From a virus, in the IMG/VR virus record IMGVR_UViG_3300014137_000003: DNA of 64,000 nt. One strand, given 5' to 3'. A program made the translations under genes and the position numbers. Of this stretch, positions 3,146-57,100 are shown piece by piece. How positions within the stretch are numbered: the stretch's first letter is position 1; each line of letters opens with the position of its first letter. The notes beneath the pieces are model-generated. The model saw only the letters and a list, made by a program, of their open reading frames with translations. It did not search any database and was not told where the DNA came from.

Positions 3146-3152
3146 ATAAAAA

Positions 3153-3674: not shown

Positions 3675-3675
3675 A

Positions 3676-3876
3676 ATGAAACTATCAAAAGCAGATGGAA
3701 AATATCTTTCAGAAGAAGGTTTCCTATCTTTGATTATAGGTGTTATCTTCTGTGTATCAGCTATTTTTAGTAGGTTTATGCTAGGAAGTAATACTTTGAC
3801 GACTTTATCCCTTATAGGAGTGGGGTATTTCTTTGGGAGTGGTATAACTTACCTAAAGATAGCTACTCGTAAATAG
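3676..3876 (+). CDS. small membrane protein
   Basis: 66-aa ORF with two hydrophobic helices. Its start abuts the upstream stop. Confidence 0.55.
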   Translation: MKLSKADGKYLSEEGFLSLIIGVIFCVSAIFSRFMLGSNTLTTLSLIGVGYFFGSGITYLKIATRK

Positions 3877-4054
3877 CTATCTTTTGGAGTCTTAGAAATT
3901 TTCGTTATTTTTATTGACAGTTAATTTTAGTATTAAATGCAATAGCTTAATTAGCTTTAATTTTTATAGGAATTCCTTAGATTTTTATCTAAGGTTTTAC
4001 TGGATTTATGGTACTTGGATCGTTGGTCTAGTACCTGTGCATAGGGGTGATTTA

Positions 4055-6867: not shown

Positions 6868-7080
6868 ATGGATTTGAATGCAAGTGGAGAAAGTAACGGT
6901 AGCTTGGAAGGACGCAAACAGTTCTTAGCAGAACTTACAAAAATGTCTAGCAAGGTTTCTACTATGGATAAAGCAGTGCTACTATCTTTCGATCCAAAAG
7001 GTAAAGTAGATATCTCATCCTTTGGTTTTCATCCTTTGGAGTTGGCAGCAACTCTTGATGGTATCTCTAAAACAATCTGA
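6868..7080 (+). CDS. hypothetical protein (possible UGA read-through to 7203)
   Basis: The start is set at the ATG at 6868, after a GGAGG SD and downstream of the promoter. After the TGA at 7078 the frame stays open for 40 more codons. Confidence 0.55.
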   Translation: MDLNASGESNGSLEGRKQFLAELTKMSSKVSTMDKAVLLSFDPKGKVDISSFGFHPLELAATLDGISKTI

Positions 7081-7229
7081 GATGGCGTATTTCAAAGTCA
7101 AAATCCTGAAGAAGCATTAATTGCAGCCCGTAGGGATGTAGCCATAGCGTGTGGGGTACCTCCAGAAGAACTAGATAAACTTGAAGATGATGAATCTAAG
7201 TAGAAGAAAATAAATGAAGGTATTAAATT

Positions 7230-7823
7230 ATGAGTAAACAGTATTTAATTGTTAGTGAGCAGGTAGGTAGTTTCCTAGAGAATAAGTCCTACAAAACTCC
7301 TCGTGAAAAGGTTGCCTTTATGGCATCCATATATGAGGCTGAGAGGCGTGCTGAAGACCCTCTCGTTCTGAGCGATGGGGATTACGATATTATTATGCGT
7401 ATCCTAAACGGTGAGGAGTTCGTAGTTGATACAGGTAAATTTTATATCAATGTAGGAGCACCTATTAATCGTGAGGAGTTCTTGTGTACGGTAGAGGTTA
7501 CTTATGATGCTGAAGGTAACCGTCTAATTGAGTGGGGCTTAGATACTCTCGATAATGCCTTCCTCTTTAGGGAACAGGATTGGGAAACTCTTGTACCTGA
7601 AGGGTATCGTAGTGATATCTTTAAGGTTATGGAACGTCTTGCTTATTTGAGGAAGGAAGAGAAGGAAGAAAGTTTCTCTCCATTTAATCCTCCTGTTGTA
7701 GAAGAAGCAGACAATGAAGTAATTTCGTATGAGGAAGGCACTTCAGACGAAGATAGCAGTGAGAACACTCATCTTAGTGAGGAAGGAACTACCTCTCTTT
7801 TAAACCAGGAAATAATCCTTTAA
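7230..7823 (+). CDS. hypothetical protein, acidic C-terminus
   Basis: 197-aa ORF with an acidic, Ser-rich tail. Confidence 0.65.
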   Translation: MSKQYLIVSEQVGSFLENKSYKTPREKVAFMASIYEAERRAEDPLVLSDGDYDIIMRILNGEEFVVDTGKFYINVGAPINREEFLCTVEVTYDAEGNRLIEWGLDTLDNAFLFREQDWETLVPEGYRSDIFKVMERLAYLRKEEKEESFSPFNPPVVEEADNEVISYEEGTSDEDSSENTHLSEEGTTSLLNQEIIL

Positions 7824-21684: not shown

Positions 21685-21778
21685 ATTAGTATAGTAGCTT
21701 AGGCTACTAGGGTAGGATGCATTTAATACGTGTAAGAGTCATGGTGGAAGTGTCTAAAGCGTCCTACCTTTTCTATTT

Positions 21779-21852
21779 GTACCTTTAGCTTAGTTGGTTA
21801 AAGCCCTCGGCTCATAACCGAGTCACCGTAGGTTCGAGTCCTGCAAGGTACA
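21779..21852 (+). tRNA. tRNA-Met or Ile2 (anticodon CAT)
   Basis: Acceptor GTACCTT/AAGGTAC, D-arm GCTT-AGTTGGTTA-AAGC, anticodon arm CTCGG-CTCATAA-CCGAG and T-arm GTAGG-TTCGAGT-CCTGC. It does not look like an initiator (1-72 paired, no GGG/CCC anticodon stem). Confidence 0.85.
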
Positions 21853-21878
21853 TAATTTTAAGAAATGAGGTATTCTAG

Positions 21879-22367
21879 ATGGGAATTGTGAATCCAGTAT
21901 TTGTGAATCCAGCAAAAACTTATGATTTTGATACACATAGGTTAAGTGTAAATGAGGTTAGACTTACCTCTGCACATGGTAGCTCTGATGGAGTTGTTCG
22001 TGTATCTTTAGCCGTATATGGAGAGGTGGTAGCCAAGGGTGGATTTCTTGCGAAACTAGGTATGAAACCTAAGCCTCAAAAGTATTCTCTTTCTCTTGGG
22101 TATAGGGTATCTTTCGACAACCAAGTAGTTTCAGACTACTCCTTTGTAGGGTTAGATGTAGGAAAAGTACAGGAAGACAGTAAGTACTTAGTACGAAGTT
22201 CCTCTCTAGAGAAATTAGTATCTAAGGGTATTAAGACTACTAAAAGTTTTGCATTAGTTACAGAAAGTTTTAATGTAATTAAACCTAACCTTTATTCAGA
22301 TATTATGCTCTATACAAAAAGAATGGCTACTAGTCGCAAAGGGAGGGAATCTCCTTGGAACAAATAA
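21879..22367 (+). CDS. hypothetical protein
   Basis: 162-aa ORF. Confidence 0.6.
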   Translation: MGIVNPVFVNPAKTYDFDTHRLSVNEVRLTSAHGSSDGVVRVSLAVYGEVVAKGGFLAKLGMKPKPQKYSLSLGYRVSFDNQVVSDYSFVGLDVGKVQEDSKYLVRSSSLEKLVSKGIKTTKSFALVTESFNVIKPNLYSDIMLYTKRMATSRKGRESPWNK

Positions 22368-22774
22368 CTTTACAAAGCTACCATAATAGGTTAGATTGTC
22401 TATTAACTGAAGGTACTTTATCTGATTTGCTTGAGTTTTTGGGTATGCAGTATTTTGAAGGAAGTAGGCAAGAAGGTAATGAGAACCGTGACGTTTATGA
22501 ATTCGTTGATAAGGGTACTATGGCGATAGAGGTTCTATTGAATGAATCCAAGGTTCGCTTTTGGAGTAACTTCTCTAGTTGGATGAGCCTACCTAATAAT
22601 GACAATTTTTGGTCACTATTATTTGATGGGTATCCTAAATTAGTAAAAAGGCTAATAGAGTTACTAGATAAAGAGTACTCATACTTAGGTTCTCTGTCTT
22701 ATGAGGTACGGTTAGATGGTAAGTTTAATGAATTCAAGAAGGAATACTTAGAGTTGAATAACTCTAAATCATGA
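22355..22774 (+). CDS. hypothetical protein
   Basis: TTG start 7 nt after GGGAGGG. Confidence 0.5.
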   Translation: MEQITLQSYHNRLDCLLTEGTLSDLLEFLGMQYFEGSRQEGNENRDVYEFVDKGTMAIEVLLNESKVRFWSNFSSWMSLPNNDNFWSLLFDGYPKLVKRLIELLDKEYSYLGSLSYEVRLDGKFNEFKKEYLELNNSKS

Positions 22775-22796
22775 TAAGAAGTTTTAGGAGGTTTAT

Positions 22797-23105
22797 ATGC
22801 AAAGGCAATACATCGTAATGAATGGTTATGGAAATAATGGAATTATAACTACTTACTTAGTAGACGTAGAACGTAGGGTACGTTGGTTTAACAATAAGGC
22901 AAGAGAAACTGGCTTAAATTTGCGTATTCGACTAACAGGAGACTCAGAAGAGTATGCATACTATGCAGAATTGATTTTGCCTAATAAATCTAAGATTCCT
23001 TTTCTTATCCGTCCGGATTACGGTTGGGGTATGTATGGAAGGACAGACTTTTCTAAAGAAGCTATGGAGTGGTATTATCAGGCTTGGTACTTGTGGAAAT
23101 CTTAA
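22797..23105 (+). CDS. hypothetical protein
   Basis: 102-aa ORF with an AGGAGG SD. Confidence 0.6.
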   Translation: MQRQYIVMNGYGNNGIITTYLVDVERRVRWFNNKARETGLNLRIRLTGDSEEYAYYAELILPNKSKIPFLIRPDYGWGMYGRTDFSKEAMEWYYQAWYLWKS

Positions 23106-23114
23106 TTTTAAGTT

Positions 23115-23147
23115 GTAAGTAGTTTGCTCTGAAGACTACTTGCTTTT
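23115..23147 (+). terminator. rho-independent terminator
   Basis: GTAAGTAGT / ACTACTTGC 9-bp stem followed by TTTT. Confidence 0.65.
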
Positions 23148-23172
23148 CTATTGGAAAGAGTGGGTTATAGGT

Positions 23173-23430
23173 ATGAAAGACAAAGACAATTATAAGTCAA
23201 CAATGTGCGTCAAGCTGAATCACCCAGAAGCTTCAACGGTATTTAATGTTATCTGTACTAAGGAGCAAGAAAACTTTCTAAAGTTCTTAGCAAGTATTTC
23301 TACTAATGTTTCTATGAATAGGTATGAACCTACAATGAGTGTGGCTGAGGGGGTAGGGAACTGCGAAAGTGATACTTTAAACGGTACTAAGAAGGCTTTT
23401 ATCTTCGATGCAACAATGTTGGAGGAGTGA
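23173..23430 (+). CDS. hypothetical protein
   Basis: The start is moved downstream of the terminator hairpin. Confidence 0.5.
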   Translation: MKDKDNYKSTMCVKLNHPEASTVFNVICTKEQENFLKFLASISTNVSMNRYEPTMSVAEGVGNCESDTLNGTKKAFIFDATMLEE

Positions 23431-23465
23431 GAAGTATCTTGCTTACTAACGAAGTGGAGGTAATC

Positions 23466-23894
23466 ATGAAAGAAAAATTCGTAAAAGACGAAGAACTAGT
23501 AAATCCAGAACGGTATATGCAAAATAAGATTGAAGCTTGGGATTTTGCCATTCAAAGTCTCTTTCCTTACCCTCTAGGGGTAGTTTCTAAGTATGTAATT
23601 CGTCATAGACATAAGGGTGGTAAACAAGACTTAGAAAAGGCTCTTATTTGGGCTAAGAAAGCTAAGGAATCTTATAAGTATATTTCTTTGAGTTGTCCTA
23701 GTGGTATTATTTACTTTGAAGAGGTACCTAAGGCAAGTGTAGAGAACTTTCCAGACCTTGGTGACGAGGAGATTTTAATATTAAAACTTTTACAAGAGGT
23801 TACTTCTCGTCTAAGGGAGGAGGAGATGTTCGAAGGAGTAATGTCTCACATTATTAAAATATTAGAGGGAATGATAGAAAACTTCCCTAGTTAG
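23466..23894 (+). CDS. DUF3310-like protein (paralog of 17826-18296)
   Basis: MKEKFVKDEELVNPERYMQNKIEAWDF...YVIRHRHKGGKQDLEKALIW. GGAGG SD. Confidence 0.6.
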   Translation: MKEKFVKDEELVNPERYMQNKIEAWDFAIQSLFPYPLGVVSKYVIRHRHKGGKQDLEKALIWAKKAKESYKYISLSCPSGIIYFEEVPKASVENFPDLGDEEILILKLLQEVTSRLREEEMFEGVMSHIIKILEGMIENFPS

Positions 23895-23918
23895 TAGAAG
23901 ATTATTGAAGGTTTTATT

Positions 23919-24305
23919 ATGAGAACTGTTAGGTTAGTTGAGGGTATATCGGAGCTTGGTACAAACATTCGGACAATTTTAGAGTATTTGGCTTTGAATG
24001 GTGAACATTTTGTAACATTCGTTCTTCGTGACCCTCTAGGTGAGATTTTAGTGTACAACCATTTATCTATGAAGGATGATGGTAGTATCGTAAGCAAGGT
24101 AATGCTGAGGGAAGAGGAAGAACCAGAAGAAAGTTCTACTGTCGAACCTACCTTATTGATGTTTAAGGGTGTTATTGCTTACTCTAAGGAAATTCCCCCG
24201 TCAGAGAAGTTTAAAGATACTTTCTCTAGTAAGTGGGATGAGATTGTTGCGGTTACTGATTTGAATGTTAGTGTTAATAGGTGGCGACAAGCCAATATCT
24301 TGTAG
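23919..24305 (+). CDS. hypothetical protein
   Basis: 128-aa ORF. Confidence 0.6.
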   Translation: MRTVRLVEGISELGTNIRTILEYLALNGEHFVTFVLRDPLGEILVYNHLSMKDDGSIVSKVMLREEEEPEESSTVEPTLLMFKGVIAYSKEIPPSEKFKDTFSSKWDEIVAVTDLNVSVNRWRQANIL

Positions 24306-24335
24306 GGGGTATTAAAGATAGCTTAAGTTTTATTA

Positions 24336-24376
24336 GAATATGCGAGTAGTTTGTTACGCAGACTGCTTGCATATTC
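24336..24376 (+). terminator. long hairpin (terminator or processing site)
   Basis: GAATATGC / GCATATTC outer stem that continues inward with G:U pairs. There is no clean U-tract. Confidence 0.4.
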
Positions 24377-24386
24377 TGTAAGTCTT

Positions 24387-24395
24387 TGCTAAAAT
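24387..24395 (+). promoter_or_regulatory. extended -10 promoter (TGCTAAAAT)
   Basis: Lies 54 nt upstream of the tmRNA 5' end. Confidence 0.6.
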
Positions 24396-24448
24396 AGATG
24401 TATAGTTTGTTAGGGGTATCTCCTTGCTAGGCTATAAGATATTATTTA

Positions 24449-24830
24449 GGGGTCGTCTTGGATTCGACAGGCGACTGAGATTAAGAACTTCACTCCGAGT
24501 GGTGACGTAATCACCAAACTTAAATATAACTGCAAACACAGTTCAACCTGTTGAGATGGCAGCCTAACAAGTCTCCCTCGACTTGTATGTCTGTCTAATC
24601 AACACAAGTAAATTACCGATTAAGGTGAGCGACTATCTGTAAGTAACGGTGCAGTGGTAGCTATAAACCACGTTACTCGCTAGAAGGGGTATCTCAGCCC
24701 TCTAGTTAAATACGAGATATAGCTTTAGGGTTTGTGCATTTACCTAAGGTCGAATGTTTAAATGTAGCAGAGTGCTATAGAGTTTTTAGTTGAGGTTGTT
24801 TGGACGTGGGTTCGAAACCCACCGGCTCCA
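24449..24830 (+). ncRNA. ssrA: tmRNA (SsrA), tag ANTVQPVEMAA
   Basis: The 5' end GGGGTCGTCTTGGATTCGACAGG and 3' end GGACGTGGGTTCGAAACCCACCGGCTCCA form an alanine-type acceptor with G3:U70. The tag ORF (GCAAACACAGTTCAACCTGTTGAGATGGCAGCCTAA) spans 24532-24567. Confidence 0.9.
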
Positions 24831-24833
24831 TTA

Positions 24834-24906
24834 GGCTTGATAGCTCAATTGGTAGAGCAGTGGACTCTTAATCCACGGGTTGTAGGTTCGAGCCCTACTC
24901 AGGTCA
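24834..24906 (+). tRNA. tRNA-Lys (anticodon CTT)
   Basis: Acceptor GGCTTGA/TCAGGTC, D-arm GCTC-AATTGGTA-GAGC, anticodon arm GTGGA-CTCTTAA-TCCAC and T-arm GTAGG-TTCGAGC-CCTAC. Confidence 0.85.
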
Positions 24907-25335
24907 TGGCTGATGTTGTAATATCAACATTCCAGCTAGTAAATTCCTTTTGCCTAAGAAGTACAATTTCTAAGCAATAAAAAGCACTGGCAATATCTGT
25001 CTGATTGTACTGGGCAGATGTCTAAAAACTTGTTGGTTAAAAGGTTCTCCAACATACGATACCAGGAGGCGTTAGAGGTATCATTTCAGGCTTAGTACCT
25101 CGATAAGGGGTAGTAAGTCATAGCTAATACTTAGGTATTAGTGAACCTTTATAGAATAACGAGTAAATAAGTGCAACTTGAGAGGTCGTTGCAGGTACAG
25201 CCAGGAAACCTTTTAAATAGTAGCCCTTAGGATAGACACTGTGTAAGTCGAGAATTGATCAGCTCGCAATCAGATGATTCTATCTGAAAGTAGTTGGCAG
25301 GGGTGAGAGCTTGTTGTTTTATAGGGGTATTCTTA

Positions 25336-25408
25336 TCCACCATAGCTCAGTTGGTAGAGCACCTGACTGTTAATCAGGTTGTCACAGGTTCGAGACCTGT
25401 TGGTGGAG
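25336..25408 (+). tRNA. tRNA-Asn (anticodon GTT)
   Basis: Acceptor TCCACCA/TGGTGGA, anticodon arm CCTGA-CTGTTAA-TCAGG and T-arm ACAGG-TTCGAGA-CCTGT. Confidence 0.9.
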
Positions 25409-25535
25409 TTCAGTAAAAATCTTCCCAGATATTTCCCTTTTACTGAAGCTAATCGTATAATTATCGATAAGACGACAGGAATACGGTTAGTCAGACCTAG
25501 CTAGGCAAGTCTAATTGTTTAGCTAGGTTTATTAT

Positions 25536-25677
25536 TGGGGTATAGCCAAGTGGTAAGGCAGTAAGAGAACTGTGGAACGGAGGTTCGAATCCTCTCAAGA
25601 CGACTAGGTCGTGCTTGTAGCCAAGGGGTAAGGCTCACAGCTACTTATGACCGTGGGTTCGAATCCCACTACCTCGA
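25536..25677 (+). ncRNA. composite double-tRNA-like RNA (permuted tRNA body nested in the anticodon loop of another)
   Basis: Four mutually consistent helices: 25536-42 with 25670-76 (7 bp), 25561-65 with 25644-48 (5 bp), 25570-74 with 25636-40 (5 bp perfect), and 25596-602 with 25610-17 (7 bp plus a bulge). It also has two D-arms and two GGTTCGAATCC T-arms with tRNA-exact spacing. Confidence 0.6.
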
Positions 25678-25731
25678 TAGTTCAGTCCTTGTAAAGTGGT
25701 CTGTAACTACTTTGCTAAGTATCCTCTAATG

Positions 25732-25740
25732 TGGTAAACT
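25732..25740 (+). promoter_or_regulatory. extended -10 promoter (TGGTAAACT)
   Basis: Upstream of 25813. Confidence 0.55.
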
Positions 25741-25812
25741 TACAGTATCATAGTTAGGGGTATTCTATATTTCTAACAGTTAAGACTAGTAATTTATCTG
25801 AGAGGTGTACTA

Positions 25813-26175
25813 ATGGAAGTTCTATTAGGTAAGACTAAGTTAAGTGGTAATGCAAGAACTGTCTCTATGAAAACAACAATACCTTTGGTAGTTCAAGAGA
25901 ATTTGCATGTAACTGAAGGTCAAGAAATTTTCCTTTATTTTAAGGAAGGACGTGTTTATCTTGAGATTTCTAAGAAGGATGAATCCTCTTATGGGCTTGG
26001 CAAGGATATTTGTTTCCTAGGAAGTAAAACTTTAGTAAATCAAGGTTCTGTGCTTGCATTTTCTTTCGCTAATGTGCTAAGAGAGGTTTTGATGTTATCT
26101 ATTGGTGACTACCTTGGTTATTACTTTAGTGAGGGTAGAATTTATATTAAAAAGTATGAAGAGGGTTTTAGTTGA
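25813..26175 (+). CDS. tandem AbrB/SpoVT-like (swapped-hairpin) DNA-binding protein
   Basis: Two repeats of the pattern ..IP..V.E.L.V.EGQEIFLYFKEGRVYLE / ...VLREVL.LSIGDYLGYYFSEGRIYIKK, which is typical of AbrB/MazE-type domains. Confidence 0.5.
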   Translation: MEVLLGKTKLSGNARTVSMKTTIPLVVQENLHVTEGQEIFLYFKEGRVYLEISKKDESSYGLGKDICFLGSKTLVNQGSVLAFSFANVLREVLMLSIGDYLGYYFSEGRIYIKKYEEGFS

Positions 26176-26230
26176 TTCTCTAGGACTTGTTAACTTATAG
26201 GGGTAAGCCTTGGAATAGGGGGTATTTAAA

Positions 26231-26467
26231 ATGGAAAAACAAACAATTCAAGAACAATTAGACCATTGGAGAAGGTTACTTCCAGTAGGTTCAGTGTGGC
26301 TTACTCAACAACTCTCTTGTAGGTTTGTAACAGTCAAGGGCGTTCATTATAGTTTATTTCCTAATTGTATTATGGTGCAGTACACTAGAGATGATGCACC
26401 TGACACAGTTTATCAAGAGATGGTAGGTGCTTTCTACAACTATATTGTAAGTAAACAAGTTAGATAA
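26231..26467 (+). CDS. hypothetical protein (paralog of 20144-20377)
   Basis: 78-aa ORF with an AGGGGGTA SD. Confidence 0.6.
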   Translation: MEKQTIQEQLDHWRRLLPVGSVWLTQQLSCRFVTVKGVHYSLFPNCIMVQYTRDDAPDTVYQEMVGAFYNYIVSKQVR

Positions 26468-26480
26468 GGTAGTAGGTTAG

Positions 26481-26540
26481 GTAGGTTACTATTTTGAAGA
26501 TGGCAAGATCTTTATTAAGAAGTACGTTGAAGAAGATTAG
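26481..26540 (+). pseudogene. remnant of an AbrB-like gene 3' end
   Basis: It translates to VGYYFEDGKIFIKKYVEED*, parallel to LGYYFSEGRIYIKKYEEGFS* at the end of 25813-26175. A stop lies immediately upstream. Confidence 0.5.
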
Positions 26541-26568
26541 CAAGTAGTTTGCCTTAGTTATCGATGTA

Positions 26569-26577
26569 TGGTATACT
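26569..26577 (+). promoter_or_regulatory. extended -10 promoter (TGGTATACT)
   Basis: Upstream of a structured leader and tRNA-Glu. Confidence 0.55.
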
Positions 26578-26751
26578 ATATGTATAGTATTTATTAGTAG
26601 TTATATTCTAGCTGAGCGTTTAGGGGTAACGACTACCAAACGTCTGTTAGCATATTCGTCTATATGGGAGTTGGGGTCGCCCGAACAAAAAAGAACACGG
26701 TTGCGAAAGTCAAATCTGTCTGCGGAAAAGCAGAGGCTTACCCTACAATGA

Positions 26752-26823
26752 GCACTGTTGGTCAAGTGGTTAAGACACTGCCTTTTCACGGCAGTAACAG
26801 GAGTTCGATTCTCCTACAGTGTA
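26752..26823 (+). tRNA. tRNA-Glu (anticodon TTC)
   Basis: Acceptor GCACTGT/ACAGTGT (G1:U72), anticodon arm CTGCC-TTTTCAC-GGCAG and T-arm AGGAG-TTCGATT-CTCCT. Confidence 0.85.
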
Positions 26824-26825
26824 TT

Positions 26826-26896
26826 GTCGATAAGGTAGCATAGCCTTACCTCTGGTATCTGGGTAAGGAGATGTCGGTTCATATCCGACTAAAGTT
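26826..26896 (+). ncRNA. tRNA-like fragment (T-arm plus long hairpin)
   Basis: T-arm GTCGG-TTCATAT-CCGAC and a 7-bp hairpin CCTTACC/GGTAAGG with an 11-nt loop. No acceptor pairing was found. Confidence 0.25.
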
Positions 26897-26929
26897 TTGC
26901 TTGATGGTGTAAGCGACAAATTTAAATAT

Positions 26930-27003
26930 CGGGAAGTAGCTCAGCTTGGTAGAGCACTTGCTTTGGGAGTAAGGGGTCGCAGGTTCGAATCCTGTCTTCC
27001 CGA
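26930..27003 (+). tRNA. tRNA-Pro (anticodon TGG)
   Basis: Acceptor CGGGAAG/CTTCCCG, D-arm GCTC-AGCTTGGTA-GAGC, anticodon arm CTTGC-TTTGGGA-GTAAG and T-arm GCAGG-TTCGAAT-CCTGT. Confidence 0.9.
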
Positions 27004-27266
27004 TGGCAAAAGATTGTATTTGAAGTAATTCATTGCATTTCGGCTTAATAGCTTGGGTAAGGTTGTTAAGTCATTAGGTGCAAGCATAATGTGCAACCGT
27101 TATGTGAGTGCTTTAGTTCCTTAATTACAAGGACGCCTAAGTGAAGGGTTAATATTCACTAACGCTCCTCAGCGATACGAGGTGACGACAACGGTTCGAT
27201 TAATAGCTAAATTTAGTCAGATAAGGTTGTTGAGATTTAATGCATTGTGTAGATGTTATCCCCTTT

Positions 27267-27275
27267 TAGTATAAT
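27267..27275 (+). promoter_or_regulatory. -10 box (TAGTATAAT)
   Basis: Lies within the RNA-island spacer. Confidence 0.4.
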
Positions 27276-27426
27276 TTAGATTCGTACCTTTCTTTCTATA
27301 GGTAACTCTCTACAAACGGTTTAGGGTAAGTAAAAAGCCGTTCATTAAATCAATATAAAACCCAGTTGCAAAAACGATATTGACATCTCCTTAATGTCTT
27401 AAATTACTTACTTTTTATCGTTTTTA

Positions 27427-27577
27427 GCTTGTGTGGTGGAATTAAGAAGACACATGGGACAGTGCTATAGCTAGGGTATCCTAGTGAGTTGCCATGCTCG
27501 CCAAACCCCATAAAGTACCGAATTAACGGTCGCCTCAGTAAATGGCAGGCTTGCGGGTGCAACTCCCGTCACAAGTG
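27427..27577 (+). ncRNA. 151-nt tRNA-like RNA with a large internal insertion
   Basis: 7-bp acceptor GCTTGTG/CACAAGT (G1:U72), an atypical T-arm GCGGG-TGCAACT-CCCGT, and about 75 extra nt containing hairpins (CTAGG-GTAT-CCTAG, ACCG..CGGT). Confidence 0.35.
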
Positions 27578-27590
27578 TTAGGAGGGTATC

Positions 27591-27938
27591 ATGCAGAGAG
27601 AAGATTTGAAAGAGTTTCTAGGATGGTTTTTAATTAACTTAGTGGCGTTTGTTAATTCTTGCTTTATTGGTTTCTTGTTCTTTATGCTTACTTATAAGTT
27701 ACATGTTCATTTTGGGTTTCCAGAGCCTAGTGTTAACGGATTAGTTCTTCTAGTTTGTTTAAATAGTGTCTTTTTCAAACTTAAGTTAGAATTAGAGTTA
27801 GAGGAATCAGAACTTTCCACCAAAGAGGTTCTATCTCAGACTGTTAGTAGGACTTTGTTTATGGTTTGTATCCTAGTTGTAATCTTTAATATTGATACTG
27901 CTTTTAGTTTTCTTCAAAATGCAATTGGAATAGATTGA
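27591..27938 (+). CDS. membrane protein
   Basis: 115-aa ORF with several hydrophobic helices. AGGAGGGTA SD. Confidence 0.55.
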   Translation: MQREDLKEFLGWFLINLVAFVNSCFIGFLFFMLTYKLHVHFGFPEPSVNGLVLLVCLNSVFFKLKLELELEESELSTKEVLSQTVSRTLFMVCILVVIFNIDTAFSFLQNAIGID

Positions 27939-27961
27939 TTACTCAACTTGCATTATATTCA

Positions 27962-28045
27962 GCACCCATGGCGGAACAGGCAGACGCTCAGGACTTAAAA
28001 TCCTGTGTCCAGAGGGACGTCCGAGTTCGAGTCTCGGTGGGTGTA
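27962..28045 (+). tRNA. tRNA-Leu (anticodon TAA), type II
   Basis: Acceptor GCACCCA/TGGGTGT (G1:U72), anticodon arm CAGGA-CTTAAAA-TCCTG, a long variable arm and T-arm CCGAG-TTCGAGT-CTCGG. Confidence 0.85.
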
Positions 28046-28326
28046 TGTGGTTAGAGGTTATCCCAGTATAAAACCTCAAGGTTTATAGATCATTGCGTAC
28101 TCCTTTGGGGAGGAGAGGAGCTCTACTCTCGCTAAATTGAGCAGTCGGTTTGGTTTCTTTTTGTGGGGACATATTTACATATCTCTTAATAATATATGCA
28201 GAATGTTATTAGTCCTCCTAGCTAGGGGTTCCTAAGGGTAATGATAGTAACAGGAAAAGGACGAGGGGGTTATATGGGGTATTTTAGCTATTTACTTCCA
28301 GTAATCTGAAGTGGGTTTGCATTCCA

Positions 28327-28337
28327 TGGTGTAGAAT
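28327..28337 (+). promoter_or_regulatory. promoter (TGGTGTAGAAT)
   Basis: The same box occurs at 59367. It lies directly upstream of the tRNA-like RNA at 28354. Confidence 0.5.
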
Positions 28338-28353
28338 CTCCTAGCTACACGGT

Positions 28354-28458
28354 ACTTGGGTAGTGATGAGGTGCAATTCCTTATCATGAATCGGAAAGCG
28401 TGACAGCGTACCTATCTTTAAGGGGTAGGTGATGAGGGTTCGAGCCCCTCTCCAAGTA
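28354..28458 (+). ncRNA. 105-nt aberrant tRNA-like RNA
   Basis: Acceptor ACTTGGG/TCCAAGT (7 bp), T-arm GAGGG-TTCGAGC-CCCTC, an internal 9-bp hairpin with a T-loop-like GGTGCAATTCC, and a second hairpin with a 9-nt loop (ATCTTTAAG). Confidence 0.35.
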
Positions 28459-33959: not shown

Positions 33960-35102
33960 ATGGCACATTTTTTCCTAGATTACGATAATTTGGTTTATTT
34001 GTTGGACAATGCAACGTCTGTAACTTCTGACTCAGCCCTTAAGGATGCTGATAAGACTGTCTTCTTCCTTATTAAGGATGAGGGTGAAAGTATTGCAGTA
34101 GCTAAAAACTCCGACTTGTTCATTCGTGTTAAGTTTATTCCAGAGCTTGTAAAAGAGGCTGGAAATGTTCAGGTAAACTCATCAGAACTTAGCAAAATCT
34201 TGGGTACTTTCTCTAACTTGAGTAGGACTCGTGTTGAATCTATCGAGTTCAAAGTTCATAAATCTAAGGTACAGGTAATTGTTCATGAGTCTGCTCTTGA
34301 TGAAGATTACCAAGACTTTGCAGGGGATACCTCTTATAGTCTTGATAGTATCAACATTAAGGAGAAGACTCTCCAAGACATTAGCGTTGAGTTTGACGAT
34401 GAAAATGCAGTAGACGTTGACTCAATGGAATTGGATATTGTCCTTTCCACTTTGCTACCTATCATGGATAGCAAGAAAGGTCTTAACAACAACCAAATTC
34501 ACTTTGCTAGCGATCAAATCTTTGTAATGGATAACCGTTCTCAAATCTTCTATAAGAATATCCTACCTGAAGTATTCAGTAATTCATCATTCCGTTACAC
34601 TTCTGTAGCTTATATGCGTAAGCTTATTCAAACGTCTAACCACTTGCGTGTAGTAATTAGTGGTAACAAGTTTGCTATCCGTTCTGAGAGTGGTGAGGTT
34701 GAAGCGTATATCAACCAACTAGGGGTACGTTTCAACTATAAACCAACGCTTGAGAAAATCACCAAAGAAAATGGTATCATTTTGGACCGTGCGTTCCTTA
34801 AGGATATTATCCGACGCCTTTCAATTATGGGTAGTGACCCTAAAGTCTCTATTCAAGAAGACGGTGTTCATATCACTACAGAAAGTTTCTCTCGTGTAAT
34901 TCCTATTAGTAATTCTAAAGGTAATGTGGAAGGTATGGAGTTTAAGGTTAACTCTTCATTGCTTGCATCTATGATTATTGGAGATGACTCAGTAATGAGT
35001 AATAACTTGTTCCTTTATCTCGAACCTGTGAAACCTCGTGGTATTCAGTTAACTATCTCGGACGATAGTGGAGCGTTCTTGTCTAATACTAAGGTATCTT
35101 AA
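33960..35102 (+). CDS. hypothetical protein (size and context compatible with a DnaN-like sliding clamp; unverified)
   Basis: 380-aa ORF in the replication module. I recognised no diagnostic motif. Confidence 0.6.
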   Translation: MAHFFLDYDNLVYLLDNATSVTSDSALKDADKTVFFLIKDEGESIAVAKNSDLFIRVKFIPELVKEAGNVQVNSSELSKILGTFSNLSRTRVESIEFKVHKSKVQVIVHESALDEDYQDFAGDTSYSLDSINIKEKTLQDISVEFDDENAVDVDSMELDIVLSTLLPIMDSKKGLNNNQIHFASDQIFVMDNRSQIFYKNILPEVFSNSSFRYTSVAYMRKLIQTSNHLRVVISGNKFAIRSESGEVEAYINQLGVRFNYKPTLEKITKENGIILDRAFLKDIIRRLSIMGSDPKVSIQEDGVHITTESFSRVIPISNSKGNVEGMEFKVNSSLLASMIIGDDSVMSNNLFLYLEPVKPRGIQLTISDDSGAFLSNTKVS

Positions 35103-35131
35103 CTATCTGATTTAGTAGAAAGGAAATCTTA

Positions 35132-35824
35132 ATGGGGGTATATGCAACAACCATCACTTCGCTAAAGCGTGACTTAGTCGAAAAGGGGCGATTAGAGTCT
35201 CGTTTAGAGAAGCGACGTGAAGAAATTAAAGAGCAAAAACAAGAGTATGAGGACTTGGTGGCAGCTTCTAAGCTTATCTCAGCAGTAGCTGACAAACAGT
35301 CTTTGGATACTCTCGACTATATTACTGGTGTTATCAATAAAACTCTAGGAGAGTTGTTTAAGTCTGACACTCGACGTATCTTCTTGAAGAAACAGATGCA
35401 CGCAGGTCGATACGCTCACCTTAAGGTTCTACTTACAGATGCTGATGGTACTGAGTATGACATGATGTTGCAGTCTGGTACAGGTTTGCGACAAGTTATT
35501 TCATTCTTGTTCTGTATCTGCTTAATTCAAATTTCAGGTGGTCGTAAGCTATTCATTCAGGACGAGCTCTTAGGGGGTACTCACGGAGCAGCGAAAGAAG
35601 TGCTTAAGCAAATCATTAAAATCTTCGCTCAAGACTTCCAGTTTATCATGATTGAGTACGGCTTTGATGACCTAGGTAAAATCTATAGCGTAGAGAAACC
35701 TAATAAGTATGCTAATGTTTATGACCTTAGTGGTAAGGAATACGACCCGAAAGCAGTATTCTTGTTTACGGATGGTATAAGTTCTGCTGAAGGCAATATT
35801 GATTTAGCTGAAGTAGAAGAATAG
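35132..35824 (+). CDS. Rad50/SbcC-like ATPase, C-terminal half (signature and Walker B)
   Basis: A coiled-coil N-terminus, then QSGTGLRQVISF (signature-like) and KLFIQDELLGG (Walker B and D-loop). Confidence 0.6.
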   Translation: MGVYATTITSLKRDLVEKGRLESRLEKRREEIKEQKQEYEDLVAASKLISAVADKQSLDTLDYITGVINKTLGELFKSDTRRIFLKKQMHAGRYAHLKVLLTDADGTEYDMMLQSGTGLRQVISFLFCICLIQISGGRKLFIQDELLGGTHGAAKEVLKQIIKIFAQDFQFIMIEYGFDDLGKIYSVEKPNKYANVYDLSGKEYDPKAVFLFTDGISSAEGNIDLAEVEE

Positions 35825-41888: not shown

Positions 41889-42131
41889 ATGGCTACGAGT
41901 AACCCATATCGAGTATTAGGTGTTAGTCCTAGTACGTCTTACGAAGAGGCTAAGCGTATCTATCGTAGGAAGGTTAAGAACCTCCACCCCGATTTAGGGG
42001 GCGACGCTAAGTTGATGATGGAAGTCAAGGAGGCTTGGGATTATCTCAATGCTAATCGAGATACTATGCTTGGTCAAACTAGCTCAGTCGGGGTAACCCA
42101 CAAATCACTTTTTGAAATTTTAGATAAATAG
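41889..42131 (+). CDS. J-domain (DnaJ-like) co-chaperone
   Basis: NPYRVLGVSPSTSYEEAKRIYRRKVKNLHPDLGGD contains the HPD motif. Confidence 0.85.
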   Translation: MATSNPYRVLGVSPSTSYEEAKRIYRRKVKNLHPDLGGDAKLMMEVKEAWDYLNANRDTMLGQTSSVGVTHKSLFEILDK

Positions 42132-44497: not shown

Positions 44498-44524
44498 TTA
44501 TCTTTAGAAGTCTAGGAGAAGCTT

Positions 44525-44959
44525 ATGCTATTAGTTAAGAATAGGAAGGCTTATCATGATTACTCTGTACTCCGTACCTTGGAGTGTGGGGTTGTTTTGG
44601 TAGGTAGTGAAGTTAAATCGCTAAAGGCTCATCACGGAGTCCTCAAAGGTTCTTGGGGGTATATTTCTAACGAAGAAGTGTTCTTAAAGGGGGTACACAT
44701 TCCGAAATGGGGTACGTCTGTTTGGAACCATGAAGAAGAAAGAGACCGTAAATTACTCCTACATAAAAAGGAAATTAAGGGTTTAGCGAAAGACTTGTCT
44801 CTTGGCGATGGGTTAACTCTTGTACCTTTAGAGCTTAAAGTTGTAAAAGGTCGAATAAAGTGCACTCTTGGCTTGTGTAAAGGTAAGAAAAACTATGATA
44901 AGCGTCAAGCTCTGAAAGAAAGAGACATCAAACGTAGTCTAGAAAGGTTAGTTAGGTAG
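44525..44959 (+). CDS. smpB: SmpB (tmRNA-binding protein)
   Basis: NRKAYHDYSVLRTLECGVVLVGSEVKSLK, RDRKLLLHKKEI and GLCKGKKNYDKRQALKERD align with E. coli SmpB (NKRARHEY...GWEVKSLR, RTRKLLL, GVAKGKKQHDKRSDIKERE). Confidence 0.9.
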   Translation: MLLVKNRKAYHDYSVLRTLECGVVLVGSEVKSLKAHHGVLKGSWGYISNEEVFLKGVHIPKWGTSVWNHEEERDRKLLLHKKEIKGLAKDLSLGDGLTLVPLELKVVKGRIKCTLGLCKGKKNYDKRQALKERDIKRSLERLVR

Positions 44960-44963
44960 TCTT

Positions 44964-45587
44964 ATGGCAGAGTTTCGTAGATATAATTATTCTAAAAAGA
45001 GACCAGGAAGTGATAATCCTATTAACCCTGACTTAGTACCTTATTTATCTTGTGTGGATACTCCTTTTACCCTTATTGGGGTATCTGTAAGAAACATTCT
45101 TTCTAGCACAGAATATAGTGCTATGGTTAGAGATTGTAAAAAAAGGGCTAGAAACAACTGTGAACTTTGTGGTAGGTATGTAGCTCGTACCAAAGAGGAT
45201 TTTATCCATTCACAAGAGCTTTATGATAAAGACCTATCTAAAGGCATTTTCAAGTATAAAGGTTTAATTGGTTTATGTAAAGATTGCTTTTATATGTTTA
45301 ATCCATATATAATGAACTTGGACTTAGAAAACCTTGTTATTAAGCCTAAGTATGTGTATAGGTTACGGCAGACTAGGGAATCGATGCTTTCCTCTTTTGG
45401 TTTTAGGGGTGTAGATTTGCCTAGGAAGAAGGTGTTTGTCTTTGAATATAGGGGGTATCAATATATAAATGATTCTATACCCTCTATTTTAGATAGGGCT
45501 TTGGGGGCAGGTGTTAGGGTTCTCCCCATGCGAAAAGACTTTATGGCAATACACCCAGACTTATATTATCATAAGCCTTTATCTTAG
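44964..45587 (+). CDS. hypothetical Cys-pair protein (degenerate HNH/zinc-finger-like)
   Basis: CELCGRY...H....GLCKDCF. Confidence 0.55.
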   Translation: MAEFRRYNYSKKRPGSDNPINPDLVPYLSCVDTPFTLIGVSVRNILSSTEYSAMVRDCKKRARNNCELCGRYVARTKEDFIHSQELYDKDLSKGIFKYKGLIGLCKDCFYMFNPYIMNLDLENLVIKPKYVYRLRQTRESMLSSFGFRGVDLPRKKVFVFEYRGYQYINDSIPSILDRALGAGVRVLPMRKDFMAIHPDLYYHKPLS

Positions 45588-45662: not shown

Positions 45663-45941
45663 ATGGTAACTAAAAAGGATATTGTTTCCGAAGTATCGGC
45701 AGAGCTTGGTATTACGAAGGTGGAAGCTAATCGAACTTTTGATACAATCTTTAAGACAATTATGGATTACGTTTCTGATGGTGAAAAGGTACAAATCAAG
45801 GATTTCGGTAATTGGGAAGCTCGTTATCGTTCTGCTCGTAATGGTCGAAACCCACAAAATGGGGCACCGATTCGTATTGAAGAACGTCTTACTCCTGTAT
45901 TTAAGCCAGGAAAAGCCTTTAAAGAACAAGTTAATAAGTAG
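45663..45941 (+). CDS. hup: HU/IHF-family DNA-binding protein (TF1-like)
   Basis: DIVSEVSAELGITKVEANRTFDTIF...FGNWEARYRSARNGRNPQNGAPIRIEERLTPVFKPGKAFKEQV matches the HU signature (GFG.F..R.R.AR.GRNP.TGE.I.I......F.PGK.LK). Confidence 0.9.
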   Translation: MVTKKDIVSEVSAELGITKVEANRTFDTIFKTIMDYVSDGEKVQIKDFGNWEARYRSARNGRNPQNGAPIRIEERLTPVFKPGKAFKEQVNK

Positions 45942-45978: not shown

Positions 45979-45985
45979 CTTATAT

Positions 45986-46057
45986 GCCCTCATAGTATAA
46001 CGGAGAGTACACAGGTTTCCTAAACCTATGATGGGGGTTCGATTCCCTCTGAGGGCA
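45986..46057 (+). tRNA. tRNA-Arg (anticodon CCT)
   Basis: Acceptor GCCCTCA/TGAGGGC, anticodon arm CAGGT-TTCCTAA-ACCTA (one C/A mismatch) and T-arm GGGGG-TTCGATT-CCCTC. Confidence 0.8.
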
Positions 46058-46121
46058 TTCTACTAGTTAAGGCTAGTGGAAGACTGACTTTCTGCTGAAG
46101 TCGATGGTAACTCCTTAGTAT

Positions 46122-54147: not shown

Positions 54148-54235
54148 AGAAGTTAAAGAGTTTATATTTTGATTTCTGAGAGTTAGAGTATAGACTTCTA
54201 AAAGTAGTAGTATCTACATAATGGAGGAATTAATT

Positions 54236-55393
54236 ATGCGTGAAGTAAATGCAACCCTTATTGTCGACTTAGGTAATAGCGAGACAAGGGTTATGGTTCA
54301 GTCAGGTCTTGGTAGGAACGGTTTGGTACGCCAGCGTATGTCTTTGGTAAGCAATAAATATGCGTCCTTACGAGAGGGGTACGAAGTTCCAGAAACTTAC
54401 ACAGAAGAGAACTCATCTATTCTAAGAACTAAGGATGGAGAGTTGTTTGCAAATGGATTGCTTGTAGAACGTGAGTTTTCGGTAGCACCTTTACGTCCAA
54501 CAAACTTGGAGAAAAAGCACGAAAGTAAGGTAACTATGATTACAATTCAACGTGCTTTCTTAGAGGGGTATAAATTGCTCTCTCAAATGTACCGAACATC
54601 TATGTCAAACCTTGACGTTACTTGGAAGGTAGTTTATTTGCTACCACCAAATGATATTTCTGAGGGTGCTAAGGTACTGTACGAAAAGATTGTAGGTCTT
54701 AAAACTCTTGAGTTTGTATTGCCTGAGTTTTCTGTTGATTTAAAAATCGAGGGTGCTAAAGTTTACCCAGAAGGGTTTGCAGCCTATATTGGAACTCTTA
54801 TGCGTAAAGGTAAAACTATCAATGAAGAGTTTAAAGGTTTGCTTGAATCAACAACCCTTATTGTTGACATCGGTGCAGGAACTACGGACTTCTTCGTGGT
54901 AGAGGGGATGGACACCATTGACTCTACTAAATCAACAATTCAAATTGGGGGTAACAACGTAACAGCATCTCTACGTCAACGAATGGCGAGTGCAGGTCTT
55001 AGTCTAACTGATAAGGTTATTGAGAAAGGTGTTCGCACTGGATATGTGAAAGATGGTGCTAAAACAATCAAAGTTGTTAAGGCTTTGGTGGCAGCAAAAC
55101 AGGACACTGCAAGCGTTCTTTTGGGTTCCATTATCTCTTATTTGGAAAGTGCTAACTATAACATTCGTACCATTGAAAATCTCCTTGTAGTTGGAGGTGG
55201 TAGTATCCCTAGTGATATCGAGGGTGTTAAGTCTCTGTCTGAGTATGTAGTAGAACGCTTAAAAGATTTTGCTCCTAACATTCAGTTGGTAAACTTGCCT
55301 AAAGAATATAAAGGTGAAGATACTACTGGTGGGGAGTTGAATCCTCGATTGTTAAACATTCTAGGTGCAGGGGTACTAGCAGAAATGGGGTAA
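54236..55393 (+). CDS. actin-like ATPase (ParM/Alp family)
   Basis: Phosphate-1 motif LIVDLGNSETRV, phosphate-2 motif LIVDIGAGTTDF and adenosine motif LLVVGGGS. The start is at the ATG after GGAGGA. Confidence 0.8.
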   Translation: MREVNATLIVDLGNSETRVMVQSGLGRNGLVRQRMSLVSNKYASLREGYEVPETYTEENSSILRTKDGELFANGLLVEREFSVAPLRPTNLEKKHESKVTMITIQRAFLEGYKLLSQMYRTSMSNLDVTWKVVYLLPPNDISEGAKVLYEKIVGLKTLEFVLPEFSVDLKIEGAKVYPEGFAAYIGTLMRKGKTINEEFKGLLESTTLIVDIGAGTTDFFVVEGMDTIDSTKSTIQIGGNNVTASLRQRMASAGLSLTDKVIEKGVRTGYVKDGAKTIKVVKALVAAKQDTASVLLGSIISYLESANYNIRTIENLLVVGGGSIPSDIEGVKSLSEYVVERLKDFAPNIQLVNLPKEYKGEDTTGGELNPRLLNILGAGVLAEMG

Positions 55394-55396
55394 TTT

Positions 55397-57100
55397 ATGT
55401 CATTAGTTGTAATTACTGGTGGACTTAGTAGGGAACAGTTATCTTTTATTGAGGAAGCCGTAAACCAATCGTTTGGTACAGGGGTAGTTACAATAAAAGA
55501 GTATTCTCTAGACGATATTTCCTTGGTAAAAGAATTACGCTTGGGTATTAAGGACTCAAGTGTGATTTCTGTATATCTTGGTAGTTTTTCTAGTGTTAAG
55601 GCACTTGAAAAGTCTCGTTCTATGCTAGAGAATTCGGGCAAGTTCTTGGAGGTCTTGTCTACAGAAGCTCTTGTAGAATACCTCAACAAAGAATATGGGG
55701 TATCTATTGAATATACTCCAGAACCTAGCACTGAGGTTGTTGTTGAGACTGCTCCTAGTATTGATGTTGAAGAAATTGAATCTTTTCGACGTTTACTTAA
55801 GGCTAAGGATGGCACTATTGAAGCTTTGGAGTTGCAGATTGCAGAACAGAAAGAATATTACGAAAAGCTCCTTTCGGGTATTGCTGAGTCTAATAAGGAC
55901 TCTCAAGTTTCTGAGGAAGATTTGTCTGAACTTCAACAACAGATTTCTTCTCTTACTGCAGACAATGAGGCTCTTTCTAAAACTAACAAAACCCTGAAAT
56001 ACGATATAGAAGTTATAAAAGAACAGAAGTCTGAACTTTCTTCTAAGTTTAATAGTGCGGATGCGTTATCTCGTAGTCAGAAAGACCTTATTAAAGAGCT
56101 TAAAGGTAAACTTGCTGATGCTAAAAGTAATCAAGTTGATGTCACCTCATATAAAGAAAGGATTTCTGAGTTAGAGTCTGAGTTGGGAACTTCTAAGGCT
56201 AGGGTTTCTGACTTGAACACCAAGGTTTCTGACTTGCAAGGCTCTGTGGGTGAGAAGGATTCTCGTATTACCGAATTGGAAGGTATTGTAGATAAGAAAG
56301 ACTCTCGTATTGCCGAGTTGGAAGCCAAAGTGGGTAGATTGACTTCTGACCTTGAAGACGAACGAAGAAATGTTACTACTCTTAATAAGCGTTTGATATC
56401 AGGTGGAAGTATGGAACCCCAAGTTATTGAAAAGGAAAACTCTTTCGACTTACCTCAAAGCCTTGAACAGCAGGTATGGGGTAGTTTGTGGGATAGTTCT
56501 CGTATTGGTTTCAAGAATATTACTTTTTTGTTTGCAGGTACTGGCGATTCCCATCGTGAAGCTTATCTCTATGCAGAGAAGAAGTTGTCTTCTACGCCTA
56601 GAGGGGGTATCTTCTATGATTTATCTACAGAGTCTGTTGCCGACTATCGTTTTGGTGTAAGGCGTGGTCATGAAGTAAGTAAATGGTATAAAGACTCTAA
56701 CGAAAACTTGAAGAGTTACTTATCTAAAACTAAGTACCCAGATGTTTATGTGTTAGGTACGTTTAGGGGTAGTCTTAATGAAATGTCTCATTTCACTCTT
56801 GACTTGTATAGTAGGTTAAGTTATTTAGATTCCTTGAATGTAAGTGTTGTAGTTTATGGAGGAGACATTAGTTCTTACTTCGGCAGGAACTTGATGTCGT
56901 CTGCTTTGTATGGTAGTCGTGTAGAAGTAGTTTGTAGGAGTTTAGGGACTTCTGCTAGGTCTATGTATTTTCATTCTCAGTTGGTAGGTGGTTCTTCTAA
57001 GGCTAGATATTACCTAGTCGGTAATTTGGATGATATGTCTAGGAAAGTATTTAAAGTAGCTCGGAGGGATGGCTTTAGTTGGGAGGTGCTAGATGCCTAA
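55397..57100 (+). CDS. coiled-coil protein (candidate partner or adaptor of the actin-like ATPase)
   Basis: 567 aa with a central heptad-rich region and short tandem repeats (VSDLNTKVSDLQ; KDSRITELEG / KDSRIAELEA). The gene starts 4 nt after the stop of the actin-like gene. Confidence 0.7.
   Translation: MSLVVITGGLSREQLSFIEEAVNQSFGTGVVTIKEYSLDDISLVKELRLGIKDSSVISVYLGSFSSVKALEKSRSMLENSGKFLEVLSTEALVEYLNKEYGVSIEYTPEPSTEVVVETAPSIDVEEIESFRRLLKAKDGTIEALELQIAEQKEYYEKLLSGIAESNKDSQVSEEDLSELQQQISSLTADNEALSKTNKTLKYDIEVIKEQKSELSSKFNSADALSRSQKDLIKELKGKLADAKSNQVDVTSYKERISELESELGTSKARVSDLNTKVSDLQGSVGEKDSRITELEGIVDKKDSRIAELEAKVGRLTSDLEDERRNVTTLNKRLISGGSMEPQVIEKENSFDLPQSLEQQVWGSLWDSSRIGFKNITFLFAGTGDSHREAYLYAEKKLSSTPRGGIFYDLSTESVADYRFGVRRGHEVSKWYKDSNENLKSYLSKTKYPDVYVLGTFRGSLNEMSHFTLDLYSRLSYLDSLNVSVVVYGGDISSYFGRNLMSSALYGSRVEVVCRSLGTSARSMYFHSQLVGGSSKARYYLVGNLDDMSRKVFKVARRDGFSWEVLDA

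Follow-up and report, generated by a model that had tools for sequence, protein, structure and literature searches.

An SmpB gene and a tmRNA gene carried together by a large virus-classified element

Trans-translation, which rescues stalled ribosomes, has two components that are also found in viruses: transfer-messenger RNA (tmRNA, the product of ssrA) and the SsrA-binding protein SmpB. Al-Shayeb et al. (2020, Nature 578:425, PMC7162821) found tmRNAs and SmpB to be encoded by huge phages and noted translation genes of a similar kind on large putative plasmids; the prior published record of such pairs is a single sentence in that paper. Phage G (PMC12484599), a marine methylophage (PMC9004378) and mycobacteriophage DS6A have a tmRNA or tmRNA-like gene in or near tRNA genes, and the phage G paper mentions a tmRNA and no SmpB. 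The DS6A gene, cited in PMC11915505, is tmRNA-like, has no coding sequence or tag frame and is reported to inhibit the endogenous tmRNA. No functional study of a phage SmpB came up in full-text literature searches. Here, we analyse a stretch of 64,000 nucleotides (the window) of IMG/VR virus record IMGVR_UViG_3300014137_000003, part of an element of about 185 kbp that encodes an SmpB and, 19.7 kb away, a tmRNA with a tag frame, and so differs from both the tmRNA-only phages and DS6A.

Phage SmpBs are more widespread than the original prediction for this locus assumed. It had held them to be much less commonly reported than phage tmRNAs, and this rarity is not supported: at least eight of the genomes deposited by Al-Shayeb et al. 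annotate an SsrA-binding protein, tblastn with the window SmpB matches 67 GenBank phage records – including all Lak megaphages and two uncultured-phage genomes of 630-640 kb – and a profile scan of IMG/VR finds at least 443 contigs encoding SmpB relatives. Because pairing with tmRNA in huge phages has also been reported before, the claim of novelty fails, and the locus is a well-supported new example of an SmpB and tmRNA pair on a virus-classified element, not a new category. When SmpB-positive IMG/VR loci were fetched, 29 of 84 proved to be host-flank artefacts, in which smpB is followed by ssrA within approximately 50-600 nt near a contig end. The remainder are mostly internal to contigs of 100-500 kb and have no adjacent tmRNA, and a dispersed arrangement is therefore typical of large phages. 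In LR756502.1 and Lak-B1 (MK250020.1), smpB lies 5-16 kb upstream of tRNA arrays (9 and 18 tRNAs, respectively), with no tmRNA within 20 kb of smpB on either side; the association of SmpB with tRNA islands recurs in huge phages. Among cellular SmpB loci, 45 of 80 have ssrA within 10 kb, usually directly 3' of smpB.

The element resembles the huge phages (Al-Shayeb 2020; Lak, LR756502/LR745206) in being a large virus-classified genome with SmpB, many tRNAs and a tmRNA, and in having smpB near a tRNA array and not beside the tmRNA. It differs in size, since huge phages exceed 200 kb by definition and the element, at approximately 180-195 kb, falls just below, and in sequence: the huge-phage SmpBs are 39-47% identical to that of the element, which matches none of 50,697 phage records by megablast and so is unlike any sequenced phage at the nucleotide level. 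It also differs in documentation, in that the huge-phage pair rests on one sentence in PMC7162821, whereas the pair of the element is a well-documented virus case with both ribosome-rescue components, examined for selection, RNA covariation and co-retention across lineages. The lineage is abundant, with more than 100 sequence variants in public assemblies, and, at about 185 kb, its genome is too small for the 'huge phage' class. The features of the pair are as follows, in window coordinates.

44525..44959, + strand: smpB, encoding the 144-residue SsrA-binding protein SmpB, with an OB-like core and a basic C-terminal helix (Pfam, NCBIfam, PDB, AlphaFold2/Foldseek)
44514..44518, + strand: Shine-Dalgarno sequence AGGAG, 6 nt 5' of the smpB ATG (direct sequence reading)
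24449..24833, + strand: ssrA, a one-piece tmRNA with no encoded CCA (3' end ...GGCTCCA, then TTA) (ARAGORN; Rfam RF00023)
24532..24567, + strand: tmRNA tag frame, GCA AAC ACA GTT CAA CCT GTT GAG ATG GCA GCC TAA, encoding (A)NTVQPVEMAA* (ARAGORN and sequence)

The smpB open reading frame (ORF; 44525..44959, + strand, ATG start, 144 residues in the ORF listing) had been predicted to align along its length with bacterial SmpB, and it does so, matching profile positions 2-141 of 143 of Pfam PF01668 (E=4.3e-47, 160.1 bits, cut-off 27). All four segments quoted in support are present in the translation: NRKAYHDY (residues 6-13), GSEVKSLK (27-34), RDRKLLLHKKEI (73-84) and KGKKNYDKRQALKERDIKR (119-137). 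The original prediction had named a Pfam profile search and a structure prediction as checks. The significant profile match is accompanied by scores above both NCBIfam equivalog cut-offs (PRK05422, 160.4 bits, cut-off 130; TIGR00086, 157.5 bits, cut-off 119.1), and SmpB chains in PDB match with E-values down to 1e-30. An AlphaFold2 (AF2) model built from a 25-sequence alignment has a mean predicted local distance difference test (pLDDT) score of 84.8, with an OB-like barrel and a C-terminal helix at residues 126-143. It superposes on solved SmpB structures: the significant Foldseek matches are SmpB structures only (7ljp, 1p6v, 2czj, 4v8q), some bound to the tRNA-like domain, with template modelling (TM) scores of 0.75-0.90 and a core root-mean-square deviation of 1.1-1.9 Å. 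These data confirm the product of 44525..44959 as a bona fide, full-length SmpB.

Residue conservation is consistent with an intact protein. Aligned with 120 cellular SmpBs, the window SmpB retains all residues at which the cellular proteins are 100% invariant (in E. coli numbering N17, A20, Y24, G33, L36, G38, E40, K42, L90, L91, K124, G128, G132, K133 and K138), as well as the equivalent of the nearly invariant E31. E. coli and T. thermophilus SmpB served as references, and the 120 database homologs give the same columns. Residues E20, L78 and K112 are the equivalents of E. coli E31, L91 and K124 on the tmRNA-binding surface, and G120 is that of the hinge glycine, roles described for the E. 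coli and T. thermophilus proteins. The tail G120-K-K-N-Y124-D125-K126-R127 aligns with the motif G-K-K-x-[YH]-D-K-R (E. coli G132...D137-K138-R139). Comparison with the ortholog of a second lineage (L003), to which it is 82.6% identical in amino acid sequence, gives a nonsynonymous divergence (dN) of 0.135 and a synonymous divergence (dS) of 1.72, which is saturated, for a dN/dS of 0.078. In this comparison smpB is among the more constrained of 16 neighbouring genes, and its immediate neighbours are 58-72% identical. By these substitution patterns, smpB is under strong purifying selection in the two lineages that carry it and is selectively maintained.

The tmRNA scores 103.9 bits against Rfam RF00023 (gathering score 47) over model positions 1-374, and ARAGORN calls the tag ANTVQPVEMAA* with the coding part at 84-119. 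The GCA resume codon is preceded by U(-5)A(-4), the usual context. Eight sequences from three lineages were aligned over 389 columns. The acceptor stem is invariant, and the G3:U70 pair (columns 3/383), an alanine identity element, is GU in all aligned sequences. In the T arm (columns 362-378) five of seven pairs are invariant and pairing is 98%, with one sequence departing at two loop-adjacent pairs. Overall, 98.4% of alignment cells form standard pairs, and nine pairs have changes on both sides, compared with 3.5±1.3 in shuffled alignments (0 of 500 shuffles reach nine) and 0-2 in slid controls. For the pseudoknots PK1-PK4, the match of the central region to RF00023 has a low posterior probability, and the PK1 hairpin stem is backed by one compensatory pair. 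The tag is conserved across the three lineages, varying only to AKTVQPVEMAA, ANTVQPARMAA and AKTVQPVGMAA, and changes in the tag frame of relatives include the synonymous GCA>GCT, CAA>CAG and CCT>CCA, which indicate selection on the peptide. By these sequence criteria the tmRNA is complete and under selection. The 5' end of a tRNA-Lys(CTT) lies only 3 nt (TTA) past the tmRNA 3' end (24830-24834), and RNase P cleavage of this tRNA would therefore define the tmRNA 3' trailer.

Compared with bacterial trans-translation (E. coli, T. thermophilus, B. subtilis), the SmpB of the element shares the fold, the tmRNA-binding face, the hinge glycine and the DKR tail, and its tmRNA shares the one-piece form, G3:U70, the T arm, the GCA resume codon and the terminal AA of the tag. 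Unlike the bacterial pair, the two genes belong to a mobile element and are separated by 19.7 kb. The tag has MAA at its end, the tmRNA lacks an encoded CCA and abuts a tRNA gene, and no cellular SmpB is more than 54% identical to that of the element. The best match in 185,579 prokaryotic reference genomes (one per species) is 53% identical, with the best matches coming from uncultured Bacilli, Clostridium, Megamonas and Veillonella, so the window smpB is not a chromosomal copy. Similarity to cellular tmRNAs is confined to the universal ends, the best match being 70-73% identical over the first ~90 nt in metagenome-assembled genomes (MAGs) of uncultured Bacilli type. Three contigs of such MAGs (L015, L017, L021) have both the best cellular SmpB matches (52-53%) and the best, weak, tmRNA matches. 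This overlap hints at a common donor or host clade; their tags, GNRNNLVPSFA and GNRNNLVPTYA, are unrelated to the phage tag.

The virus-borne tmRNA had been placed approximately 20 kb from smpB, and the distance from the tmRNA 3' end to the SmpB start is indeed 19.7 kb. The linkage recurs elsewhere. IMGVR_UViG_3300008274_000007 (180,840 bp) has both genes, with an SmpB 98% identical (L005) and a tmRNA 98.7% identical (L209). The gene at 33960-35102, midway between tmRNA and smpB, is represented in public assemblies by more than 100 near-identical variants, and 21-kb loci extending 10 kb to either side of it contain both smpB and the tmRNA in lineage 2 (L316, L317, L318) and in other assemblies of lineage 1 (L319, L320). 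Related contigs cluster at 175-195 kb: those with the near-identical variants of this gene fall around 180-195 kb, and those of the second lineage, which is 90% identical at gene 33960-35102, are 175-180 kb. Thus, smpB and the tmRNA have been co-retained in two diverged lineages. Scanning IMG/VR for tmRNA 5' ends (at least 120 matches), the search that recovered L209, also identified a third lineage, L241 (IMGVR_UViG_7000000673_000020, 178 kb), whose tmRNA is 78% identical in nucleotide sequence and has the tag AKTVQPVGMAA, with flanking proteins 33-87% identical.

We consider it probable that this phage-like element of ~180-195 kb, whose host is probably of a low-GC Bacillota type, encodes a complete and functional trans-translation pair that supplements ribosome rescue. 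Starting from the identity and integrity of smpB and the tmRNA, their linkage and the purifying selection on them, we infer a course that draws on host alanyl-tRNA synthetase (AlaRS), EF-Tu and proteases. The tmRNA would be transcribed within the tRNA island and processed at its 3' end together with the abutting tRNA-Lys, and the host CCA-adding enzyme would supply the CCA, because the tmRNA encodes none. Host AlaRS would charge it with alanine via the invariant G3:U70, phage SmpB would bind its tRNA-like domain, and host EF-Tu would bring the complex to ribosomes stalled on truncated mRNAs, where the C-terminal tail of SmpB (GKKNYDKR plus the basic helix) would probe the empty mRNA channel. 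Translation would then resume on the tag frame, add A-NTVQPVEMAA and stop at UAA, freeing the ribosome, and the tagged product would be marked for host proteases that recognise AA-COOH. The benefit may be extra ribosome-rescue capacity during infection, as mRNA breakage rises or host components become limiting.

Several observations weigh against this interpretation. The tag ends in MAA, rather than the usual LAA, VAA or FAA, and the targeting of tagged products to proteases is therefore an assumption. At positions conserved to at least 92%, the SmpB carries some substitutions peculiar to its lineage: tryptophan replaces tyrosine at residues 44 and 62, and ELKV stands at 103-106 where homologs have K-x-Y-F. 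No capsid, portal or terminase gene was found with PHROGs or Pfam in the ~120 kb examined, comprising the window and both flanks, and the presence of ParB-like and ParM-like genes means that a plasmid-like lifestyle is possible. Lastly, two 8-mer peptide scans – pattern scans only, not a search of the whole contig – detected no SmpB ortholog in L241.

The last of these points bears on the alternative that survives best, which we regard as possible, if clearly the less likely: that the tmRNA is the core and works mainly with host SmpB, and that the phage smpB either boosts dosage without being essential or is an HNH-spread cassette, in neither case specially cognate. L241 keeps its tmRNA at 78% identity despite the divergence of its flanking proteins, and a search of 5.8 billion proteins, like the 8-mer scans, gave no candidate for its SmpB, with nothing between 83% and 54% identity to the window protein. 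A tmRNA without a detectable SmpB argues for SmpB as an accessory booster rather than an obligate partner. This suggests, on present sequence comparisons, that SmpB is accessory in this group, with a tmRNA that possibly works with host SmpB, and L241 may be a tmRNA-only lineage. Moreover, smpB is located in a locally fast-evolving patch beside an HNH-like ORF, and the published huge-phage SmpBs of LR756502 and Lak-B1 have no tmRNA within the 20 kb on either side. Set against this, the absence from L241 rests on pattern scans and not on the full 178-kb contig, and in both lineages that have smpB it has a dN/dS of 0.08 and is always accompanied by the tmRNA. Two clades with SmpB and tmRNA and one apparently with tmRNA only provide a natural comparison for what a phage gains from its own SmpB.

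We think it unlikely that the pair is a semi-orthogonal, phage-tuned rescue system and counter-defence module, in which phage SmpB prefers phage tmRNA and the tag gives its products a different fate. Were this so, ribosomes would be kept cycling when host trans-translation is overwhelmed or disabled, possible causes being phage-induced mRNA decay, anticodon nucleases, HEPN RNases and CoCoNuT-type systems with SmpB-like sensor domains. The idea draws on the unusual SmpB substitutions, which lie on an otherwise conserved surface, and on the lineage-conserved tag A[NK]TVQP..MAA. The original prediction likewise proposed that the pair is cognate, that it counters defences and that it belongs to a host-mimic set used for takeover; each of these could be so, but purely as conjecture.

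The nature of the element bears on a further alternative, rather unlikely in our judgement: a large plasmid or phage-plasmid in place of a lytic phage, with the pair benefiting plasmid maintenance or host fitness. Every ORF of appreciable size lies on the same strand, GC content is 34-41% and GC skew is uniformly positive. Contigs from different assemblies have the same gene order and differing start points, which fits a circular or circularly permuted genome of ~185 kb; the genome is probably circular and ~180-195 kb long. Window proteins are mostly ORFans, with recognisable SbcC/SbcD-like, UvrD-type helicase, DHH/RecJ-like, ParM/MreB-like, RNase HII and GtfA/GtfB-like glycosyltransferase proteins. 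Upstream of the window are a 1220-residue PolA-type polymerase (phrog_17, E=6.5e-96; 25-28% identical at best to those of sequenced phages), a split NAD-ligase, a DnaB-like helicase and a primase, and downstream are an FHA/PP2C/kinase triad, a variable ~980-residue Ig-domain protein, MPTase-PolyVal and ParB. A replisome of its own is encoded by the element, which occurs in no bacterial reference genome. The search for virion genes extended beyond the window into four upstream loci (L013, L095, L097, L322) and two downstream (L012, L328), and found replication, repair and partition genes only. A 1448-residue ORF has no tblastn match among phages.

A plasmid would account for the ParM/MreB-like (phrog_691, E=4e-19) and ParB-like (E=3e-41) genes and for the lack of any virion hallmark in the ~120 kb examined, and Al-Shayeb et al. 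remark on large putative plasmids with translation genes (PMC7162821). On the other side, the contigs are listed in IMG/VR, many of the proteins match phage-only PHROG families and DUF3310, an MPTase-PolyVal gene and a tRNA island are present, and the genes are strictly one-stranded. No conjugation genes were seen in the regions examined, and the ~65 kb beyond the ~120 kb read is room enough for a virion module. The element is probably a phage, with a plasmid-like replicon as the main alternative.

A role in interference – in which the pair would be a decoy for host tmRNA, SmpB or proteases, titrating them as the tmRNA-like gene of DS6A might – is improbable. The precedent is the inhibition of endogenous tmRNA reported for the DS6A gene and cited in PMC11915505, and the lineage-specific substitutions at conserved SmpB positions could be read in this way. 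But the element keeps an intact tag frame, conserved through synonymous changes, and a canonical resume context, and the SmpB tail and hinge residues needed for tagging are all kept, none of which a pure decoy would need. That smpB and ssrA are host chromosomal DNA, from an ssrA-integrated prophage flank or a mis-binned bacterial contig, is essentially excluded: this artefact explains the 29 loci noted above and some GenBank 'phage' matches (e.g. StauST398-5), in which the two are adjacent host genes at contig ends, whereas here they are element-owned, dispersed 19.7 kb apart deep inside ~185-kb contigs and flanked by ORFans and phage-type replication genes, with a best reference-genome SmpB only 53% identical and cellular tmRNAs similar at the universal ends only.

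The genes that surround the pair include the following.

21778..28458, + strand: tRNA island around the tmRNA, with Met-CAT, Lys-CTT, Asn-GTT, Glu-TTC, Pro-TGG and two Leu-TAA (ARAGORN, Rfam)
41889..42131, + strand: 80-residue J-domain protein (Pfam DnaJ, E=2.8e-9)
44964..45587, + strand: 207-residue ORF starting 4 nt past the smpB stop, with weak similarity to HNH endonucleases (phrog_5200, E=4.9e-7)
45663..45941, + strand: 92-residue HU-type DNA-binding protein (Pfam Bac_DNA_binding, E=8.7e-29)
45985..46058, + strand: tRNA-Arg(CCT), 1 kb 3' of smpB and kept in all related loci (ARAGORN)

None of nine tRNAs encodes CCA, nor does the tmRNA. The content of the island varies among L316, L317 and L241 – lineage 2 adds Ser, Tyr and Lys-TTT, and L241 adds Trp – while the tmRNA is constant. 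In lineage 2 (L316:997-1100) the tmRNA is followed by tRNA-Lys(TTT) after a spacer of ~100 nt. The second tRNA-Leu(TAA) (28389-28458, 70 nt) is an ARAGORN call only, below the Rfam gathering score, and may be a degenerate copy. Pfam identified no other translation or RNA-repair genes beside the tmRNA (12-24 kb), where DUF3310 is the one match. The J-domain and HU proteins are present as had been predicted, and the 207-residue HNH-like ORF, which has 65% amino acid identity between lineages, is probably co-transcribed with smpB.

Midway between the two genes, the 380-residue and 230-residue ORFans at 33960-35824 have 99% identity over more than 100 variants and 90-95% between lineages, and the 230-residue ORFan has a dN/dS of 0.026. 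A capsid fold was considered for the 380-residue protein (33960-35102), and the AlphaFold model, at a pLDDT of 35.6, is unusable because the alignment is shallow; the secondary-structure pattern would suit a sliding clamp. One variant of this protein, P0141, is listed on a contig of 528,835 bp, approximately three times the usual length, and the three loci retrieved for it are on ordinary contigs of 53-180 kb. The long contig may stem from misassembly as a concatemer or from an integrated copy.

Recoding of TGA as a sense codon in the host was suspected, as only one of 28 long ORFs ends in TGA, and was rejected: 14 of 75 ORFs end in TGA, and translation table 4 gives no meaningful ORF extension. 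The ParM/MreB-like actin homolog adjoins a 567-residue coiled-coil protein (54221-57100) and the ParB-like protein lies downstream of the window (L328:17715-18506), forming a segregation-type gene set in a virus-classified element. The downstream triad consists of an FHA protein, a PP2C phosphatase and a 655-residue Ser/Thr kinase, followed by a Big_13 protein of 944-994 residues and MPTase-PolyVal (L012:5558-13492, L328:6193-14084). Upstream, the NAD-dependent DNA ligase is apparently split into N- and C-terminal ORFs (L097:970-2238, 3120-4610, 6872-7804), between which are a 497-residue HNH/ParB-like ORF and two ORFans. The GtfA/GtfB-like pair at 3914-6800 resembles the enzymes by which Gram-positive cocci glycosylate serine-rich adhesins, and may be a sign of the host or of phage-protein modification.

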